Source of the DNA: a virus | Taxonomy: Duplodnaviria; Heunggongvirae; Uroviricota; Caudoviricetes | IMG/VR virus record: IMGVR_UViG_2778261168_000003 | Strand: one strand, 5' to 3' | DNA: 35,120 nucleotides | The notes under the pieces: generated by a model | What the model was told of the DNA's origin: nothing | The model's database searches: none | Seen by the model: the letters and a program-made list of their open reading frames with translations, nothing else | Shown: in pieces, positions 3,911 through 34,186 of the stretch | Layout of the letters: each line of letters opens with the position of its first letter | Numbering within the stretch: position 1 is the stretch's first letter | Position numbers and translations under genes: made by a program

Positions 3911-4764
3911 GCACCATCCTGAAATGGGCGGGTAATAAAACCGCCATTATGTCCGAACTGAAAAAATACCTTCCTGCTGGCCCGCGACTGGTTGAACCTT
4001 TCGCGGGTTCTTGTGCTGTGATGATGGCGACGGATTACCCCAGCTATCTGGTTGCGGATATTAATCCTGATTTAATCAACCTCTATAAAAAGGTTGCTGC
4101 TGATTGCGAGGCGTTTATATCTCGTGCCAGAGCTTTATTTGAGGAAGCAAACAGGGAGGTGGCTTATTACAACATAAGGCAGGAGTTTAATTACTCCTCT
4201 GAAATTACTGATTTCATGAAAGCGGTATATTTCCTGTATCTCAATCGTCATGGTTACCGTGGGTTATGTCGCTATAACAAGAGCGGGCATTTCAACATTC
4301 CCTATGGGAATTATAAAAATCCGTATTTCCCTGAAAAAGAAATTCGCAAATTTGCAGAAAAAGCCCAGCGAGCAACGTTTATCTGCGCCAGCTTTGATGA
4401 AACGCTGGCGATGTTGAAGGCGGGGGATGTGGTGTATTGCGATCCGCCTTATTACGGTACGTTTTCCGGTTATCACACTGACGGCTTCACTGAAGATGAC
4501 CAGTATCACCTGGCATCCGTTCTTGAACATCGGTCATCAGAAGGACATCCGGTCATTGTTTCTAACAGTGACACATCCCTGATCCGTTCGCTGTATCGCA
4601 ATTTTACTCACCACTACATCAAGGCAAAACGCAGCATCGGCGTAGCAGCTGGTGAGAGTAAATCTGCAACAGAAATCATCGCTGTTTCTGGGGCGCGCTG
4701 CTGGGTGGGATTTGATCCTTCGCGTGGCGTGGATAGTTCTGCCGTGTACGGAGTGCGTGCATGA
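3907..4764 (+). CDS. dam: DNA adenine methyltransferase (Dam-like)
   Basis: N-terminal AdoMet motif (ILKWAGNK...EPFAGSCAV) and catalytic DPPY motif (CDPPYYGTF); GGAGG RBS 7 nt upstream of ATG 3907. Confidence 0.85.
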
Positions 4765-7175
4765 GCCATGCTGATATGAACAACTGCAGCGGCTTTAACG
4801 AGGCCGCCGCAGCATTCTCATGGAACAGCCCGAAAAAGGCTATTAACCCTTATCTGGACCCGGCGGAAGTTGCGCCGGTTTATGCGCTTTCAAACCTGAT
4901 CACTCTGTACGCTGCCGATAACGAGCAGGAACAACTGCGCCGCGAGGCACTGAGTGATCAGGTCTGGGAGCGTTATTTCTTTAATGAATCCCGTGATCCT
5001 GTCCAGCGCGAAATGGAGCAGGATAAGCTCATTAGCCGGGCAAAGCTGGCGCATGAGCAGCAGCGTTTTAATCCAGACATGGTCATTCTGGCGGACGTCA
5101 ACGCTCAGCCTTCCCATATCAGCAAGCCGCTGATGCAACGTATTGAATACTTCAGCAGCCTGGGCAGGCCAAAGGCTTATTCCCGCTATTTGCGTGAGAC
5201 GATTAAGCCATGTCTGGAACGACTGGAGCATGTACGCGAGAGTCAGCTATCCACTTCTTTTCGCTTTATGGCAAGCCATGAAGGGCTGGACGGCCTGCTG
5301 ATCCTGCCTGAAATGAGTCAGGCTCAGGTGAAACGCCTGTCCACCCTTGTTGCTGCGCATATGAGCATGTGTCTTGATGCAGCTTGTGGCGATTTGTATG
5401 CCACCGATGACGTTAAGCCAGAAGAAATCCGCAAAACATGGGAAAAGGTGGCAGCGGAAACCCTGCGTCTGGATGTTATTCCGCCTGCGTTTGAGCAACT
5501 CCGTCGGAAAAGAAACCGCCGTAAACCCGTGCCCTATGAACTCATTCCGGGTTCGCTGGCGCGTATGTTGTGTGCCGACTGGTGGTATCGGAAATTATGG
5601 AAGATGCGTTGCGAATGGCGGGAAGAGCAGTTGCGTGCTGTCTGCCTGGTCAGCAAAAAAGCATCCCCCTATGTCAGCTATGAAGCCGTGATGCATAAAC
5701 GTGAGCAGCGCCGTAAGTCGCTGGAGTTTTTTCGTTCTCATGAACTGGTGAACGAAGACGGCGACACGCTGGATATGGAAGATGTGGTAAACGCCAGCAG
5801 CAGCAACCCTGCGCATCGCCGCAATGAGATGATGGCCTGTGTTAAAGGTCTGGAGCTTATCGCGGAAATGCGCGGTGACTGCGCCGTTTTCTACACCATC
5901 ACCTGTCCGTCACGTTTCCATTCCACGCTAAATAACGGCAGGCCCAACCCAACCTGGACAAATGCGACGGTAAGACAAAGCAGTGATTATCTGGTCGGCA
6001 TGTTTGCTGCATTTCGTAAGGCGATGCACAAAGCCGGATTGCGGTGGTATGGCGTGCGGGTGGCTGAGCCGCATCATGACGGTACAGTTCACTGGCACCT
6101 GTTGTGTTTTATGCGCAAAAAAGACCGCCGCGCCATCACTGCATTACTGCGTAAGTTTGCCATCCGTGAAGACCGCGAGGAGTTGGGCAATAACACAGGG
6201 CCGCGCTTTAAGTCTGAGTTGATTAACCCGCGCAAAGGAACGCCGACAAGCTACATCGCGAAATACATTAGTAAGAACATTGACGGGCGTGGTCTGGCTG
6301 GCGAGATCAGCAAGGAAACGGGTAAATCCCTGCGTGATAACGCTGAATACGTTAATGCCTGGGCGTCTCTGCATCGTGTTCAGCAATTCCGCTTCTTTGG
6401 CATTCCGGGGCGTCAGGCTTACCGTGAACTGCGATTACTGGCTGGTCAGGCGGCAAGGCAACAGGGGGACAAAAAAGCAGGTGCGCCGGTACTGGATAAC
6501 CCGCGCCTTGATGCAATCCTGGCTGCTGCTGATGCTGGTTGTTTTGCCACCTACATCATGAAGCAGGGCGGCGTACTGGTTCCCCGCAAATATCACCTGA
6601 TCAGAACCGCTTATGAAATCAACGAAGAGCCGACCGCCTATGGCGATCACGGCATTCGTATTTATGGCATCTGGTCACCCATTGCAGAGGGCAAGATCTG
6701 CACTCATGCAGTGAAGTGGAAAATAGTTCGTAAGGCCGTTGACGTTCAGGAGGCGGCAGCCGACCAGGGCGCTTGCGCCCCTTGGACTCGTGGCAATAAC
6801 TGTCCCCTTGCTGAAAATTTGAACCAACAAGGGAAAGACAAATCAGCTGATGGGGATACCAGAACGGACATTACCCACATGGATGACAAGGAGTTGCACG
6901 ATTACCTACACAGTATGAACAAAAAAGAGCGCCGGGAACTGGCTGCAAGGTTACGCTTGGGGAAACCGAAACGGCGTAGAGACTACAAACAGCGAATTAC
7001 AGACCATCAACGACAGCAGCTCGTCTATGAACTGAAGTCCAGAGGATTTGATGGCAGCGAGAAAGAGGTCGATTTACTCCTTCGCGGCGGCAGTATTCCG
7101 TCAGGAGCAGGCCTGCGTGTCTTCTATCGGAACCAGCGTTTGCAGGAAGATGATAAGTGGCGGAACCTGTATTAA
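4761..7175 (+). CDS. A: Rolling-circle replication initiator gpA (P2 A-like)
   Basis: 804-aa ORF; HxH-type motif ([10 protein letters not shown]) and tyrosine motif (YIAKYISK) as in P2 gpA; ATGA overlap with dam. Confidence 0.9.
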
Positions 7176-7267
7176 TTACGCGGGTTAACAATTCGTGCTC
7201 TTAATAATACCAGGCATATCAGGCTGATGAACGTAAAAAAACGTTTTACATCAGTAAGATTATTATA

Positions 7268-7287
7268 TACTGTAAATATAAACAGTG
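7268..7287 (+). promoter_or_regulatory. LexA (SOS) box
   Basis: TACTGTAAATATAAACAGTG: perfect CTGT-N8-ACAG with AT-rich spacer, about 40 nt upstream of the Tum-like ORF. Confidence 0.6.
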
Positions 7288-7328
7288 GTTATCTATACAG
7301 TGTTGTTTGCGGTGTCATAGGAGGAAAG

Positions 7329-7517
7329 ATGCAGGACTATTTTTTGGAGTCTTTGAAGCTCCAGCGCATTGATTTTTTTCTTAAGCTTGTAGCGGCTAGT
7401 GAGTGTAGTGATGAAGAGAAGGGGCTGGCCCTGCAGTGGGTTTCTGAATTGACTGATGAACTCATGGCAAAAATCAGAAGCCACGAATACAACCGCTCAA
7501 TGGATGTCATCAGCTGA
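7329..7517 (+). CDS. SOS-controlled small protein, candidate Tum-like antirepressor
   Basis: 62-aa ORF with AGGAGGA RBS immediately downstream of the LexA box; position (after A, before cos) matches 186 tum. Assignment is by context, not sequence recognition. Confidence 0.4.
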   Translation: MQDYFLESLKLQRIDFFLKLVAASECSDEEKGLALQWVSELTDELMAKIRSHEYNRSMDVIS

Positions 7518-7527
7518 GGTGACTTTT

Positions 7528-7761
7528 ATGCGCATTGAAATAATGATCGATAAAGAGCAGAAGATTAGCCAGTCTACCCTGGACGCCCTTGAATCCGAGC
7601 TTTACCGCAATCTGCGCCCCCTGTATCCCAAAACGGTAATCCGTATCCGTAAAGGTAGCTCTAACGGTGTGGAACTGACCGGACTGCAACTGGACGAAGA
7701 AAGAAAACAAGTGATGAAAATTATGCAGAAGGTGTGGGAAGACGACAGCTGGCTGCATTGA
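7528..7761 (+). CDS. DinI-like protein
   Basis: 77-aa ORF; MRIEIMIDK...LESELYRNL...RKIMQKVWEDDSWL resembles E. coli DinI (MRIEVTIAK...ETWESADDWF); RBS GAGGTGA. Confidence 0.7.
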   Translation: MRIEIMIDKEQKISQSTLDALESELYRNLRPLYPKTVIRIRKGSSNGVELTGLQLDEERKQVMKIMQKVWEDDSWLH

Positions 7762-7874
7762 TTTTGTCAATAGACGCTTGTTTTTACTAATCAAAAAGGG
7801 TTACATATGAGTGAGAGGCGATGTCAATCAGATATCGCCTTGTTTTTTGTCAAGAAAAGAATAATAGGCTAAAA

Positions 7875-8552
7875 ATGAAAATTAATAATGTAGCGTTACC
7901 AATATCTCTTGCTGTAATCCTAACTGGTTGCGTGCCACATGCTTCTAACCGAAATATCACTGCTATTGAAGTGGTGAAGCCTGCTATTGGGCAAAGTGCT
8001 ACCGCCTACATGGGCGATCCCATTATCACATCTGCTACTGGATTTAAAACGGACGTACTAGAACTTGGTGCGGCTAATGGTGCATTGTCTTCTATCGCTG
8101 CTGGTACATATTGCAGTGAGGGGAATGGAATTTACCGCAATTATCATAACCCTCAAGCTGTTGCGTTAAAAAATCTCTATGGGCAAATCGGTAACTATGT
8201 TGATTATGTTAGTTACGATGCTGCAAAAAATGAGATATCACCGCCAAATGGTACTTCTTATACTGCATCAGAAATTTCTATCAAACGTGTTCCTGATGGG
8301 CTGTGTCGAGTTAGTAACTCATTGGTTAAGACTATCGAATACAATGGAAATGCAGGCGGTGTAATGAAGTTCACCTATCGTGAATTTGCAAACGATATGG
8401 CTCGTGCAGCATTTACAACAGATTTTTCTGTAGATTCTAAGGGAAGTGACGTTATCGCTTACAAAGGTGCCAAGTTCAAAGTGAACAAGGCTGATAACTC
8501 GTCTATTTCTTATACAATTATTTCTGGCTTTGACAAGGCTGTCACGTTCTAG
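7875..8552 (+). CDS. Lipoprotein of unknown function (cargo gene)
   Basis: Signal peptide with lipobox (ISLAVILTGC); 225 aa; AT-rich codon usage unlike the phage core. Confidence 0.6.
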   Translation: MKINNVALPISLAVILTGCVPHASNRNITAIEVVKPAIGQSATAYMGDPIITSATGFKTDVLELGAANGALSSIAAGTYCSEGNGIYRNYHNPQAVALKNLYGQIGNYVDYVSYDAAKNEISPPNGTSYTASEISIKRVPDGLCRVSNSLVKTIEYNGNAGGVMKFTYREFANDMARAAFTTDFSVDSKGSDVIAYKGAKFKVNKADNSSISYTIISGFDKAVTF

Positions 8553-8655
8553 GTTTCACGCTTGCTGAGTATGTTACGATTTTGCACATTCTGCATAAAC
8601 GCGCATGTCTATGCTGCATGAGATCGCATGATCGTTTGAGGATCTTTTGTGTTAA

Positions 8656-8680
8656 GGCCCGCCAGTTCTGGCGGGCTTTT
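8656..8680 (+). terminator. Rho-independent terminator-like hairpin
   Basis: GCCCGCCAG-TT-CTGGCGGGC stem followed by TTTT. Confidence 0.45.
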
Positions 8681-8725
8681 GCGTAGATCATGCAGGTGCA
8701 TGAAAACCACTACATAAAGCGGGCA

Positions 8726-8744
8726 GGCGTGGCGGGGATACGAG
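8726..8744. other. Candidate cos (cohesive end) site
   Basis: GGCGTGGCGGGGATACGAGCGCGCGCT resembles the P2/186 cohesive-end sequence as recalled from memory (186 GGCGTGGCGGGGAAAGCAT; P2 GGCGAGGCGGGGAAAGCAC, followed by GCGCGCT). Confidence 0.45.
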
Positions 8745-8896
8745 CGCGCGCTAAGTCATATAAGAGTTATATATTGATTTGATTGCTGGACATGCATACA
8801 GTATCGCTCTATCATCTAATAAATCTTAGAGTATTTGACAATGTTTGGATAAAATGGAACCTAACTTATTCATAATCCGCTAAACAGGGATGTCAG

Positions 8897-18521: not shown

Positions 18522-18966
18522 ACTGCAGAAGGTGGACGACTGGCTGAGTGTCTTGCTGACGAATCTGGAGCCAGCCGCAAGAAGCCGCATGATGCGTCAG
18601 CTGGCGCAGGAACTGCGCCGGACACAGCAGCAGAATATCAGGATGCAGCACAACCCTGACGGTAGCAGCTATGAACCGAGACGGGTAACAGCACGCAGCA
18701 AAAAGGGTCGCATCAAACGTCAGATGTTTACAAAGCTGCGCACCACCAAATACCTGAAAACTGCCGCCAGCGCCGATTCTGCCAGCGTGCAGTTTGAAGG
18801 TAAGGTGCAGCGCATTGCCCGCGTTCACCATTACGGCCTGCGTGATCGTGTAAGCCGTAATGGTCCGGAAGTGCGGTATGCAGAGCGGCGATTATTAGGT
18901 TTCAATAACGATATAATGTTGAAGTTAATTGATCTGTTAACTCGGCATTTAATTAATCCAAACTAA
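18514..18966 (+). CDS. S: Tail completion protein S-like
   Basis: 150 aa; synteny with P2 S; the last ~20 codons are AT-rich and overlap the convergent cargo gene. Confidence 0.7.
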   Translation: MAELQKVDDWLSVLLTNLEPAARSRMMRQLAQELRRTQQQNIRMQHNPDGSSYEPRRVTARSKKGRIKRQMFTKLRTTKYLKTAASADSASVQFEGKVQRIARVHHYGLRDRVSRNGPEVRYAERRLLGFNNDIMLKLIDLLTRHLINPN

Positions 18967-20158
18967 GTTTATATTTCTCAATGTGATTATTGATGTGATT
19001 AAAGAACATTCTTGGATTCCAACCTTTTGTGAGTTCAGAAATTAAATACTCATCAACCATGTCGAGTGCATAGTCTAAGGTCGGCTGTAAAAGTAGCCCC
19101 CCAATTGATCCAACTACTGGAGCTAAAGGAGATGTAATATTCGATGCCGCTAAGGCTCCAGTTAACATCATGGCAATGCTCTTAGTCGAACGGCCTAAAA
19201 AGGAATCAAAAAATCCTTTTGAGTTTGATATGCTATCAATGTAATATTTTGAGATGTCACTCGCTGAACTGCTTTGTTCTGCTTCTTTTAACCATTTTCT
19301 GAATTTTTTAGCATGACGATCATTTCTGAGCCTCATGATGTCATTCATTGGTAATCCCATTTCAATAAATGATTTACGTAAGTCAGGGAAGTTTTCAATG
19401 AGTGAAATTTGTTTGAATATCTCATTCTTATCAATTGTAATTAATGCTTGGCTGATAATTGCACTCACATTGTCTGTTATGTGGGGGCGAGCTTTTTTAT
19501 TAACGAGATATTTAAAGTTGAACAGTTCTTCTGCAACTTTTCCTAACTTTTTTTTATCGGTAAGACTCAAATCTGTTAATTTCTCTTTAGTTAAATCGAT
19601 TCCCAACTGGTTAAGTTTACCACTATTCAAAGCTGATATTGTCATGTCAACACAGTCTTTTTCTAAACCTTTGGGAATGTCTAAGTAGTTATCTCTCAGT
19701 TTTTTAATAAGATTTCTTTTTTCACCAGGTTTAAGACCTTTTCTTAATACGCTGAGCCCAGTTGAGATCGACTCCTCAGGGTCCGTATGTACGGTACTAT
19801 TAAATCTCATGCTAACTAATGGAAGAGTTCCAGGTATCGGAGATGAAATGTATCCAACATTGGCAGTCCATAATGAAAAACTAAGAGCCTCTTGGTCAAT
19901 TAATCTCTCAACATCATATAGGCCTATCTCATTAACCAGAAAAGCAAGTGGAACGTTTTCTCCATATACTTTGAAGTTTAATTTTTCATTTAAAATAAAA
20001 CCCTCAAATAGCTTTGATCTAATATTTTGAAGTTTTTTAGGTTGATCTATTATGTCTTGCTTCGTGAGCTGTGTTTCGCCAATCATAATATATTTTCGGC
20101 AGTAATCGTTTAGTTCTGTATCAAATAAAGCATTCGATATATCTATTTTTTTTGACAT
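18953..20158 (-). CDS. Cargo protein of unknown function at the S/V (P2 orf30-type) locus
   Basis: 401-aa ORF antisense to the late operon in a strongly AT-rich insert; hydrophobic stretch near the C-terminus (IAMMLTGALAASNITSPLAPVVGSIGGLLL); no recognisable catalytic motif. Confidence 0.6.
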   Translation of the reverse strand: MSKKIDISNALFDTELNDYCRKYIMIGETQLTKQDIIDQPKKLQNIRSKLFEGFILNEKLNFKVYGENVPLAFLVNEIGLYDVERLIDQEALSFSLWTANVGYISSPIPGTLPLVSMRFNSTVHTDPEESISTGLSVLRKGLKPGEKRNLIKKLRDNYLDIPKGLEKDCVDMTISALNSGKLNQLGIDLTKEKLTDLSLTDKKKLGKVAEELFNFKYLVNKKARPHITDNVSAIISQALITIDKNEIFKQISLIENFPDLRKSFIEMGLPMNDIMRLRNDRHAKKFRKWLKEAEQSSSASDISKYYIDSISNSKGFFDSFLGRSTKSIAMMLTGALAASNITSPLAPVVGSIGGLLLQPTLDYALDMVDEYLISELTKGWNPRMFFNHINNHIEKYKLSLD

Positions 20159-20333
20159 CTTATGATCCTGTTATCCTTGTGAGGACACCCTAGAGTAATA
20201 GTGAATTTATAAATACACAGCGGCATAAATTAGATCTTTTAAGATTTTTTTTCAATCTATAAATATATATAAGTGAAAAGTGATTTTTTGACTGTGAGGG
20301 CGGCAAAAGGTGTGGGACGACTTTAAAAGTCAT

Positions 20334-20351
20334 TGTGCTATTGATTACACA
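20334..20351. promoter_or_regulatory. Late-activator (Ogr) dyad TGT-N12-ACA upstream of V
   Basis: TGTGCTATTGATTACACA; shares TGTGC-ATT with the dyad upstream of FI. Confidence 0.4.
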
Positions 20352-20397
20352 AGCTTGCGACCTATCCAGGTGACTCCTGGAAAGACATTCTATAGGC

Positions 20398-20976
20398 ATG
20401 AACGCACAACTAACAGAAATCATGCGCCTTATCACCAACCTAATCCGCACTGGTGTAGTCACCGACGTGGACCGGGAGAACTGGCTTTGTCGGGTGAAAA
20501 CGGGCGAGCTTGAAACTAACTGGATCAGCTGGCTGACGCTGCGTGCAGGGAATGCCAGGACATGGTGGCGACCATCGGAAGGTGAGCAGGTGGTGGTGCT
20601 GAGCATGGGCGGCAATCTGGAAACCGCGTTTGCGCTGCCCGCCATCTATTCGAATCAGTTCGCGCCACCGTCGACGTCGGCGGACGCCTGCGTGACAGAA
20701 CATCCTGACGGTGGCTGGTTTGAATACGAACCCGCCACCGGGCGCTGGTATGTCAGAGGCATCAAATCAATGGTCATTGAGGCCGCTGACAACATCACCA
20801 TGAAAACCAGTGAGTTTGTACTGGAGGCTGACCGCACGCGCATTAACAGCGAAGTGGTGATCAATGGTGGCATTACCCAGGGCGGCGGAGCGATGAGTTC
20901 TAACGGGATCGTGGTTGATGCGCATCAGCATACTGGCGTCCTGAAAGGCGGCGATACCACCGGAGGCCCGGTATGA
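20398..20976 (+). CDS. V: Baseplate spike/assembly protein V
   Basis: 192 aa; N-terminal LIRTGVVTDVD...CRVKTGE...WLTLRAGNARTWW resembles P2 gpV as recalled. Confidence 0.8.
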   Translation: MNAQLTEIMRLITNLIRTGVVTDVDRENWLCRVKTGELETNWISWLTLRAGNARTWWRPSEGEQVVVLSMGGNLETAFALPAIYSNQFAPPSTSADACVTEHPDGGWFEYEPATGRWYVRGIKSMVIEAADNITMKTSEFVLEADRTRINSEVVINGGITQGGGAMSSNGIVVDAHQHTGVLKGGDTTGGPV

Positions 20977-32500: not shown

Positions 32501-34186
32501 TTATCCTAATCCTGGCCATACCATGACGATGATTGTCCCTGCCAGCGTCAGCAGGACGTTGGCGATTGCGTAGGTGCCCGCATAGCCCAGCGCAGGGATG
32601 TTACTGCGAGCTGTATCACTGATGATCTCCATTGCCGGCGCGCAGGTGCGTGCGCCCATCATTGCGCCGAACAACAGTGCGCGGTTCATTCGCAATACAT
32701 AAGCACCGAACAAGAAACAGATAACCACGGGCACAAGACTGACAATTAATCCGGCAATCAACATCTGACCGCCAATCGCGCCCAGGCCGTTATTAATACC
32801 GCTACCGGCGCTCAGACCAACGCCTGCCATAAACACCATCAAGCCGAACTCTTTCACCATGCTTAATGCACCTTGCGGAATGTAACCGAAGGTCGGGTGG
32901 TTAGCACGCATAAAGCCCAGCATAATTCCGGCGAATAACAACCCGGCAGCGTTCCCCATGCCGAAACTGAATGTGCTGAACTGGAAGGTGATCATCCCGA
33001 TCATCAGCCCAATAACAAAGAAGGCGCAAAATGCCAGCAGGTCAGTGACCTGGCTGTGAATCGAGATAAAGCCGATGCGATCGGCGATGGTTTTTACGCG
33101 ACGGGCATCACCGCTGACTTGTAAAACGTCACCTTTGTTAAGCACGACGTTGTCATCTATCGGCATCTCAATCTGGCTACGAATGACGCGGTTAAGGAAG
33201 CAACCGTGATCGGTCAACTTCAGTTGTGCGAGACGTTTACCTACAGCGTTATGGTTTTTAACGACCACTTCTTCAGTGACGATACGCATGTCGAGAAGGT
33301 CACGATCGAAAACTTCTTTACCGTTACGGAAGCTGGGATCGAGTCGGGCATGGGCGTCGGGATAGCCTACCAACGCTATTTCATCGCCCATTTGTAGCAC
33401 GGCATCACCGTCTGGATTTGCCAGAATCCCGTTACGTCGAATACGTTCAATGTAGCAGCCGGTTTGTCGATAAATACCCAGTTCACGCAGATTTTTGCCG
33501 TCGGTCCAGGCCACCAGCTCCGGGCCGACGCGATAGGCGCGGATCACCGGTAAATAAACCTTACGGTTGGCATCAGTGTCCAGGCCACGTTCGCGGGCGA
33601 TTTGCTGGGCGCTGGTCTGTAAGTCCTGATGCTGCAATTTCGGCAAGTAACGCGCACCAACAATCAAACTCACCAGACCGATTAAATAGGTTAAGGCATA
33701 CCCGAGGCTCAGATTATCCAGTGCCAGTGAGAGCTGCCTGCTTTCCATGCCGGAATGACGCAGTGTATCGCCAGCACCGACCAGAACCGGTGTCGACGTC
33801 ATAGAGCCTGCTAACATACCGGCCGTCAGGCCAATATCCCAGCCAAACAGCTTACCTAACCCTAAGGCGATCACCAGCGCACTGCCAACCATCACCAGTG
33901 CTAACATTAGGTAATTTTTCCCATCGCGAAAAAAAATGGAAAAAAAGTTCGGTCCGGCTTCGACCCCGACGCAGAAAATAAACAGCATAAAGCCAAGATT
34001 AAGCGCATCGGTGTTAATGCTGAAATGTTGTTGGCCTAATAACAGCGATACGACTAAAACGCCAATGGAATTACCCAGTTGGATCGAACCAAGTCGTAAC
34101 TTTCCGAGACATAGCCCAAGCGCGAGGACCACAAATAATAACAGAATGTAATTCCCATTTAACAATTCGGCGACGTTTATATTCAC
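32501..34186 (-). CDS. ybjL: Putative transport protein YbjL (host gene)
   Basis: 561-aa multi-pass membrane protein with two central soluble domains; recognised as E. coli YbjL; neighbours ybjM and grxA as in E. coli K-12. Confidence 0.85.

Follow-up and report, generated by a model that had tools for sequence, protein, structure and literature searches.

The DNA analyzed here is a stretch of 35,120 nucleotides, which we call the window; it represents a prophage of the P2 family and within it of the Fels-2/DuoHS type. Its backbone comprises a 186-type CI repressor, CII, Dam, the replication gene A (positions 4761-7175) and tail genes, with the portal and terminase genes on the minus strand from position 10583, and the prophage also encodes a holin, an endolysin, LysB and LysC. 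It appears to adjoin ybjL, as DuoHS does in E. coli HS. A module with a gene for a lipoprotein separates the LexA-controlled tum/dinI switch from the hypervariable defense hotspot of P2 (Table 1). A sequence-only reading had described this gene as that of a prophage-encoded lipoprotein of unknown function. Both parts of this description hold, as the element is a P2/Fels-2-type prophage and as neither the libraries nor the literature give a function for the protein.

Table 1 Features of the lipoprotein locus. Positions are those of the window
Feature	Position	Strand	Basis
LexA (SOS) box CTGTAAATATAAACAG, 5' of the tum-type operon	7270-7285	+	CTGT-N8-ACAG
62-aa ORF (phrog_698), opening the SOS-controlled operon	7329-7517	+	189-nt CDS in Fels-2, DuoHS and other relatives
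DinI-like (TumB-type) gene	7528-7761	+	Pfam DinI E=1.2e-22; annotated DinI in relatives
Facultative lipoprotein module, 843 bp	7760-8602	+	blastn against L003 and L004
Invariant 15-mer AAAAGGGTTACATAT, candidate promoter or operator	7794-7808	+	directly 5' of the hairpin
Conserved 11-bp hairpin (7815-7841) plus T-run; terminator- or attenuator-like	7815-7850	+	terminator scan, folding
Lipoprotein CDS, 225 aa	7875-8552	+	phrog_1353 E=3e-105; signal, conservation, dN/dS
Signal peptide, residues 1-18	7875-7928	+	lipobox reading
Lipidated Cys19 (predicted)	7929-7931	+	lipobox L-T-G-C
Intrinsic terminator hairpin, backbone-owned	8654-8680	+	GC stem 8657-8676 + UUUU
PDC-M03 candidate defense pair in the variable slot	8897-10548	+	PADLOC
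HipA-like kinase (PDC-M03A)	8897-9811	+	PADLOC E=2e-122
HIRAN protein (PDC-M03B)	9808-10548	+	PADLOC E=3e-93

The open reading frame on the plus strand extends from 7821 to 8552 and would code for 243 amino acids; an internal ATG at 7875 yields a protein of 225 amino acids that ends with the TAG at 8552. We reject the longer reading as unlikely. Every homolog compared starts (MK...) at the position of ATG 7875, an AGG/AGGG Shine-Dalgarno motif is found 7-9 nt 5' of this codon in divergent homologs, and ATG 7821 is located inside a conserved hairpin. We therefore place the start at 7875. Residues 1-19 of the protein (MKINNVALPISLAVILTGC) start with a basic n-region (Lys2), which is followed by a hydrophobic core free of charges and by the lipobox L-T-G-C, in the layout M-K-INNVALPISLAVI-L-T-G-C19 and with the predicted cleavage site between MKINNVALPISLAVILTG and C19. 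This layout agrees with the lipobox rule [LVI][ASTVI][GAS]C with the cysteine at 15-35, and we take the signal at 7875 to satisfy the PROSITE rule PS51257. Since C19 is invariant in 22 close homologs and a canonical lipobox is kept in 155 of the ~183 family members sampled, with mostly near-lipoboxes or type I signal peptides in the remainder, the signal is no chance motif. The residue at position +2 is Val20 in the window and A, V, S or T across the family, never Asp. In E. coli lipoproteins without Asp at +2 are sorted to the outer membrane (the Lol rule), and by this rule the protein encoded at 7875-8552 is predicted to be anchored in the outer membrane. Cys80 and Cys144, both invariant in the close subfamily, would fit an oxidizing compartment.

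Residues 1-223 of the protein align to positions 1-230 of the 230 positions of the phrog_1353 HMM (E=3.1e-105). When compared with an E. coli allele of 94% nucleotide identity, the gene shows 35 synonymous and 7 non-synonymous changes. The resulting dN/dS of 0.05 indicates a real gene under strong purifying selection and, together with the reading frame and the conserved signal, confirms the 225-residue lipoprotein with an LTGC lipobox that had been proposed earlier.

The gene is facultative in prophages of this type. Two sister prophages (L003 and L004) with the same PDC-M03 cargo and no lipoprotein gene match the window in blastn only at 7001-7759 and 8603-11000, and the stretch of 843 bp in between, 7760-8602, is thus the module. 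It is an insert that is present or absent between collinear phages and it deviates in GC content (40.7% for the lipoprotein gene; gpA has 52.9% and the whole window 50.9%). The module is a self-contained one-gene accessory unit (moron) that is gained or lost as a whole. Between dinI and the lipoprotein gene the DNA folds into a hairpin (7815-7850; fold energy -16.6 kcal/mol, z -3.7). Its pairing at 7815-7841 is preserved by compensatory replacements that arose twice independently, once in E. coli NCTC11121 (C-G to T-A) and once in a Buttiauxella prophage (G-C to T-A). Judged from the sequence, this upstream hairpin is part of the module itself and might act as a terminator, an attenuator, a 5' stabilizer or an operator. 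The 15-mer next to it is unchanged in the window, in Fels-2, in NCTC11121 and in the Buttiauxella prophage, which has no dinI.

A terminator hairpin downstream of the gene had been taken for the gene's own. Such a hairpin does exist (8657-8676 followed by UUUU; -26 kcal/mol, z -4.7 on folding), but the segment 8603-8752 is common to related prophages without the lipoprotein gene, where its terminator comes after dinI. Consequently this terminator is the backbone's, and the hairpin that the module owns is the upstream one. The placement of the gene in a cargo region is likewise only half right, as the gene is a facultative insert but lies on the constant side, at the margin of the variable hotspot. 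The region 7100-8900 gave no match to Rfam.

Close copies of the lipoprotein are found in well-known phages. It corresponds to STM2726 of the Salmonella phage Fels-2 (99.1% identical protein) and to ECHS_RS25360 / WP_000700647.1 of the E. coli HS prophage DuoHS (100% identical), and the protein of the Klebsiella phage ST11-OXA245phi3.1 is also 100% identical, so that its identity over the three host genera (E. coli, Salmonella, Klebsiella) amounts to 99-100%, also in many P2-like Klebsiella phages. Positions 7100-8752 of the window are ~98% identical to Fels-2, to the Salmonella phage RE2010 and to dozens of P2-like phages and prophages of Klebsiella pneumoniae, and the clinical K. pneumoniae carriers include the lineages ST11, ST258 and ST512. 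The module is present in 50 of the 5,426 complete E. coli genomes, HS with DuoHS and ATCC 8739 among them, always once and always on the chromosome; ~1,279 E. coli genomes have a P2-like backbone and only 50 carry the lipoprotein. Database labels are everywhere 'hypothetical protein' or 'lipoprotein', and full-text literature searches yielded no functional study for STM2726, EcHS_A0921, WP_000700647 or phrog_1353. The gene is therefore not new to the databases; what is undescribed is the large family to which it belongs, with its apparently new fold (see below).

The hotspot of P2 between the replication/tum genes and the portal gene Q holds anti-phage cargo (Rousset et al. 2022, PMC9122126). 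In the window the slot 3' of the lipoprotein gene is occupied by the PDC-M03 pair. In relatives it contains AbiU (Fels-2, Klebsiella phages), bSEFIR (Buttiauxella), PD-T7-4-like, PD-Lambda-3_B/HEPN-like or NsnA/PD-T4-2-like genes, and unknowns. A functional tie of the lipoprotein to PDC-M03 is ruled out, as each is found without the other and the PDC-M03 pair is present in many E. coli genomes that lack the lipoprotein beside it. When 46 IMG/VR loci with the lipoprotein gene are compared, the upstream kilobase falls into 5 clusters, one of which comprises 40 loci, and the downstream 2 kb fall into 25 clusters. Thus, the gene marks the border between constant and variable DNA, and by its location it belongs to a defense island or hotspot. 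The protein has no match in PADLOC-DB 2.0 at E<=0.1, and the papers on the P2 hotspot contain no mention of the gene.

The upstream neighborhood suggests when the lipoprotein might be made. The LexA box is the sole perfect CTGT-N8-ACAG within the whole window, and the DinI-like gene is the last backbone gene 5' of the module. In DuoHS, tum is a LexA-controlled antirepressor that was shown experimentally to trigger induction of the phage (PMC12055606). In the Fels-2-positive Salmonella strain TA100 the mutagen MX increased expression of the predicted operon STM2726-STM2727-STM2728 (all p<0.05), with an induction of 2.6- to 14.8-fold that is given as a range over the three genes and not gene by gene (PMC2225428). 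This spread would fit an attenuated read-through of the hairpin 7815-7841, and replication of the prophage could be an additional contributor to the rise. A promoter scan returned no convincing sigma-70 promoter for the lipoprotein gene. From the candidate TTGTCA-18-AAAAAT transcription would start inside the lipoprotein open reading frame, and a leaderless mRNA from a -10 element AATAAT at 7861 is ruled out by the conserved Shine-Dalgarno motif. Several distant homologs have a terminator and promoter-like boxes 5' of the gene. We infer that the lysogen would produce the lipoprotein and that DNA damage would increase its synthesis, either by read-through of the upstream hairpin or from a promoter just 5' of it. 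Nevertheless, the hairpin 7815-7841 looks like an efficient terminator, so that expression in the lysogen can only be presumed.

As the gene lies directly 3' of the LexA-controlled tum operon and rose with this operon after DNA damage in Salmonella, the lipoprotein might serve its own phage during the lytic cycle that SOS induction sets off. It could prevent new virions from adsorbing again to sister cells and debris ('anti-Kronos', as T5 Llp) or aid in envelope breakdown and release. We regard such a role as quite unlikely, since most E. coli P2-like prophages do without the gene (50 of the ~1,279 genomes have it), the lipoprotein does not co-vary with the tail fiber, many family members are not in phages, and the phage already has a holin, an endolysin, LysB and LysC. 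In addition, the gene does not keep DuoHS virions from being trapped on capsule-less lysogens and debris (PMC13622650). A function of the lipoprotein as a spanin is ruled out, because LysB and LysC are encoded elsewhere in the prophage.

The family of the lipoprotein corresponds to PHROG 1353, a family without assigned function, which our profile search extends far beyond phages (~2,400 clusters). A word-indexed search had yielded 27 enterobacterial clusters; the exhaustive profile search gave 2,434 clusters (50% identity) at E<=1e-3 and 1,256 at E<=1e-10. Members are found in Pseudoalteromonas, Shewanella, Acinetobacter and Methylotuvimicrobium and also, outside recognizable mobile elements, in Nitrospirales, Treponema, Chlorobiaceae and Flavobacteria, and many of the hosts are environmental and not host-associated. 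Across 128 aligned sequences P36, G47, G158 and E170 are invariant, and C19, Y156, Y168, R177, D187, K197, N208, I211, Y213 and F219 are conserved in at least 90%. The conserved core is formed by the C-terminal ~75 residues, and the same region ends longer secreted proteins. The lipoprotein has no Pfam-A match at E<=1, nor has any of 40 family members, and there is no match in NCBIfam or, by sequence, in the PDB; profile and member-wise searches are likewise empty.

With the alignment of 128 sequences AlphaFold2 produced a confident all-beta model (pLDDT 90.7, pTM 0.76, 17 strands), in which a flexible tether to about residue 28 is predicted to be followed by a compact all-beta body. Structure prediction followed by a fold search had been suggested as a check with the sequence-only reading. 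Among the known exclusion lipoproteins no fold relationship was found, and a significant match of the predicted structure to known inhibitors was not obtained either. According to the model the fold is apparently new, with no solved relative.

The fold search also bears on the proposal that the protein is an orphan lipoprotein which acts in the periplasm as an inhibitor or immunity factor and neutralizes an enzyme that arrives from outside and degrades the envelope, for instance the lysozyme of a phage tail, a peptidoglycan hydrolase of a T6SS or bacteriocin, or host lysozyme. Analogous inhibitors (T4 Spackle, MliC/PliC, T6SS immunity proteins) are often located on mobile elements. The model resembles none of the known inhibitors to a significant degree, none of the loci examined has a cognate toxin gene in the vicinity, and DuoHS lysogens without a capsule still suffer lysis from without, which together render an inhibitor function rather unlikely.

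Enterobacterial homologs of 53-61% identity sit in cargo islands of mobile elements, where genes for large serine recombinases, for a nuclease of the OLD family, for a putative AbiC and for a MobA relaxase are among their neighbors. More distant homologs are likewise single genes and lie in phage tail regions (Acinetobacter Vieuvirus phages, the Moraxella phage Mcat28), in SSU5-like phage-plasmids (~95-120 kb; E. coli, Citrobacter, Shigella) and in Edwardsiella plasmids. Temperate phages or phage-plasmids of at least four further kinds carry relatives, each as a single gene, and we conclude from these sequences that unrelated temperate elements have captured the family repeatedly. As no neighbor gene is conserved across taxa in the distant genomes, the lipoprotein probably acts autonomously.

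It could be argued that the gene is a passenger without a selected phage function, that is, a hitch-hiking bacterial lipoprotein gene kept by its linkage to the backbone. It is always annotated as hypothetical, has no known phenotype and is dispensable in many sister prophages. On the contrary, the low dN/dS, the 99-100% identity over three host genera while the flanking cargo turns over (25 downstream clusters), the independent capture of distant members by unrelated phage types and the maintenance of the upstream hairpin by compensatory changes all point to selection, and we consider a mere passenger very unlikely.

The sequence-only reading had pointed to the phage lipoproteins Llp and Cor as models for superinfection exclusion. 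Llp of T5 is a small lytic-conversion lipoprotein that blocks FhuA; its gene adjoins that of the receptor-binding protein of T5, and Llp matches the receptor of this protein. The protein described here shares with Llp that it is a phage lipoprotein which has a lipobox and for which an anchor in the outer membrane is predicted, that it probably acts as a lone gene and that it is possibly made when the phage goes lytic. However, it has ~206 mature residues and no sequence or fold similarity to Llp, and its gene is found in identical form in phages with unrelated fibers, ~14 kb away from gpH. Cor (phi80/N15/HK022/T1) is a small superinfection exclusion lipoprotein tied to phages that use FhuA. 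It likewise is a prophage moron lipoprotein for which action at the outer membrane against incoming phages is proposed, but there is no overlap with Cor in PHROG or Pfam, and the family described here spans several phyla. In contrast to the FhuA setting of Cor, the receptors in the hosts considered here are LPS or capsule (PMC13622650).

The analogy to Llp and Cor is a sensible but so far unsupported hypothesis. Its simplest form, in which the putative lipoprotein blocks the receptor of its own phage, is disfavored by four observations. First, the lipoprotein is related neither in sequence nor in fold to Llp, Cor or other known exclusion lipoproteins. Second, its gene is not close to gpH, as noted above. 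Third, the lipoprotein does not co-vary with the fiber: it is 99-100% identical in the window, in DuoHS, in Fels-2 and in the Klebsiella phage, and the receptor-binding parts of the fibers are unrelated, as gpH can be aligned among these phages only over the N-terminal 210-225 amino acids and the Klebsiella fiber cannot be aligned at all. Fourth, the receptor of DuoHS is the O9 O-antigen, and capsule-less DuoHS lysogens still adsorb DuoHS virions, which remain trapped on these cells and on debris, and die by lysis from without (PMC13622650).

A further group of mobile-element lipoproteins that are expressed in the carrier cell comprises Bor/Iss, Bor being encoded by lambda, and the plasmid-encoded TraT. 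Bor/Iss and TraT are outer-membrane lipoproteins that give serum resistance, and TraT also causes surface exclusion. TraT is similar in size to the protein described here, which differs from the whole group in that it matches no Pfam model at E<=1. By analogy to Bor or TraT, the lipoprotein might be an envelope factor of lysogenic conversion that is unrelated to phages and benefits the host by serum or complement resistance, by tolerance to detergents or antimicrobials, by adhesion or by vesiculation. An outer-membrane lipoprotein is what the signal predicts, prophages of clinical Klebsiella pneumoniae very commonly have the gene, one 80% identical copy lies beside a CS1-type fimbrial operon and a phage-plasmid copy is near fimbrial genes. 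The spread of the family in free-living bacteria and its conserved polar residues would also suggest a general envelope ligand. Nevertheless, the protein has no similarity to Bor, Iss or TraT, many hosts of the family are environmental, and the recurrent placement beside defense genes is left unexplained. We therefore hold such a conversion factor to be possible but doubtful.

The hotspot location, the context of defense islands and the linkage to the SOS switch lead us to favor, tentatively and with less than even confidence, that the lipoprotein is an envelope-acting exclusion or defense factor aimed at other phages. The grounds for this role are the genomic location and analogy. In the mechanism we suggest, the lipoprotein would work alone in the envelope and would bind a component that is conserved among Enterobacteriaceae and that would not be the strain-specific LPS or capsule receptor of the phage itself. 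Its most likely benefit would be the exclusion of heterologous phages or of other envelope-attacking agents, both during lysogeny and during induction. The action would then resemble that of Cor, Llp or TraT without kinship to them. Against the exclusion of other phages speak that no PADLOC model matches, that the family occurs also outside recognizable mobile elements and that capsule-less DuoHS lysogens with the gene are unprotected from DuoHS.

Several polar residues of the lipoprotein are constant across phyla: E170 is present in every sequence, and R177, D187, K197 and N208 are kept in 90% or more of them. This pattern would fit better to a general envelope ligand than to a receptor blocker engaged in an arms race. 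It argues for an ancestral function in a general interaction with the envelope, which phages would then have co-opted. It is conceivable, though we would not count it as probable, that a huge and so far undescribed family of exported lipoproteins (~2,400 clusters, at least five phyla) has been captured repeatedly as a one-gene module that responds to DNA damage and confers phage resistance. If this were true, it would represent a new mechanistic class of superinfection exclusion that acts via a conserved envelope target and is independent of the receptor of the phage.

Llp, Cor and Bor are the classic examples of changes made by phages to the host surface, and all of them are small and narrowly distributed. 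In contrast, the lipoprotein described here is large and stems from a huge uncharacterized family without a Pfam entry or a structural relative. It also borders the best-studied phage defense hotspot, and yet the surveys of this hotspot passed it over. The genes old, tin and fun(Z) of P2 occupy the same region, from the replication/tum genes to the portal gene Q. However, the products of these hotspot genes are cytoplasmic nucleases or other effectors and the genes are swapped fast, whereas the lipoprotein is predicted to be exported and its gene stays at the constant edge. If the lipoprotein alters phage susceptibility or the envelope, this would matter for phage therapy of Klebsiella and for the understanding of lysogenic conversion; should its role in the envelope be a general one, a function would be gained for thousands of 'hypothetical lipoproteins'. 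With DuoHS in E. coli HS a genetically tractable and already instrumented system is at hand for this gene.

The conserved C-terminal domain of the lipoprotein family comprises ∼75 residues (IEYAGKSG..F.YSEF..ARDAFTREF...KGA.FE...A.N..I.YKV). The same domain forms the C-terminal end of three longer secreted proteins of 340–381 aa (P0101, P0154, and P0166); these lack a lipobox and carry a type I signal peptide instead. As the domain also terminates these longer proteins, we suggest that it is a portable domain. In the 90% identity clustering of the protein collection, the lipoprotein itself (window 7875–8552) was placed under a representative of 308 aa, a branched-chain amino-acid aminotransferase. 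This grouping looks like a clustering artefact and is the reason why the first homology search gave no full-length match above 90% identity.

The region upstream of the lipoprotein gene contains an SOS switch and, between this switch and the gene, an invariant 15-mer followed by a hairpin and a T-run (see table). The SOS switch corresponds to the tum region that was shown to control the induction of DuoHS, the related prophage of E. coli HS. The pairing of the hairpin is preserved in divergent prophages by two independent compensatory substitutions, and a search of this element against Rfam gave no match.

Features of the window and of related loci
Feature	Locus	Position	Strand	Remark
SOS switch	window	7270–7761	+	perfect LexA box, 62-aa ORF (phrog_698), DinI-like gene
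15-mer, hairpin, T-run	window	7794–7850	+	AAAAGGGTTACATAT
PDC-M03	window	8897–10548	+	two-gene candidate defence system; PADLOC matches to both genes
ORF, 401 aa	window	18953–20158	-	
ORF, 151 aa	window	20190–20645	-	
ORF, 561 aa	window	32501–34186	-	beyond ogr end of prophage
Three-gene set	L030 (E. coli NCTC11121)	4131–6009		includes STAS-like protein; slot after lipoprotein
463-aa protein of DuoHS	L005 (E. coli HS)	5577–6968		slot after lipoprotein

Downstream of the lipoprotein module, the variable slot ahead of the portal gene Q is occupied by PDC-M03, for which the literature search found only a passing mention. Its two genes overlap by 4 nt. One product is a 304-aa HipA-like kinase (PADLOC E = 2e-122, weak Pfam match to HipA_C), and the other is a 246-aa HIRAN-domain protein (PADLOC E = 3e-93) whose N-terminal start is weakly HipA-N-like. 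The contents of this slot in L030 and L005 have no match in PADLOC and may be defence cargo of an uncharacterised kind.

Further downstream, the plus-strand tail and baseplate genes are broken up by the minus-strand ORFs of 401 and 151 aa, which have no match in Pfam or PADLOC. Together they resemble an accessory (moron) locus, which would be the second in this prophage; at the equivalent site a Klebsiella relative carries a different minus-strand gene (230 aa).

In size and position, the 561-aa ORF corresponds to ybjL, the gene next to the DuoHS prophage of E. coli HS. This agreement in size and position suggests that both prophages share a common integration site.
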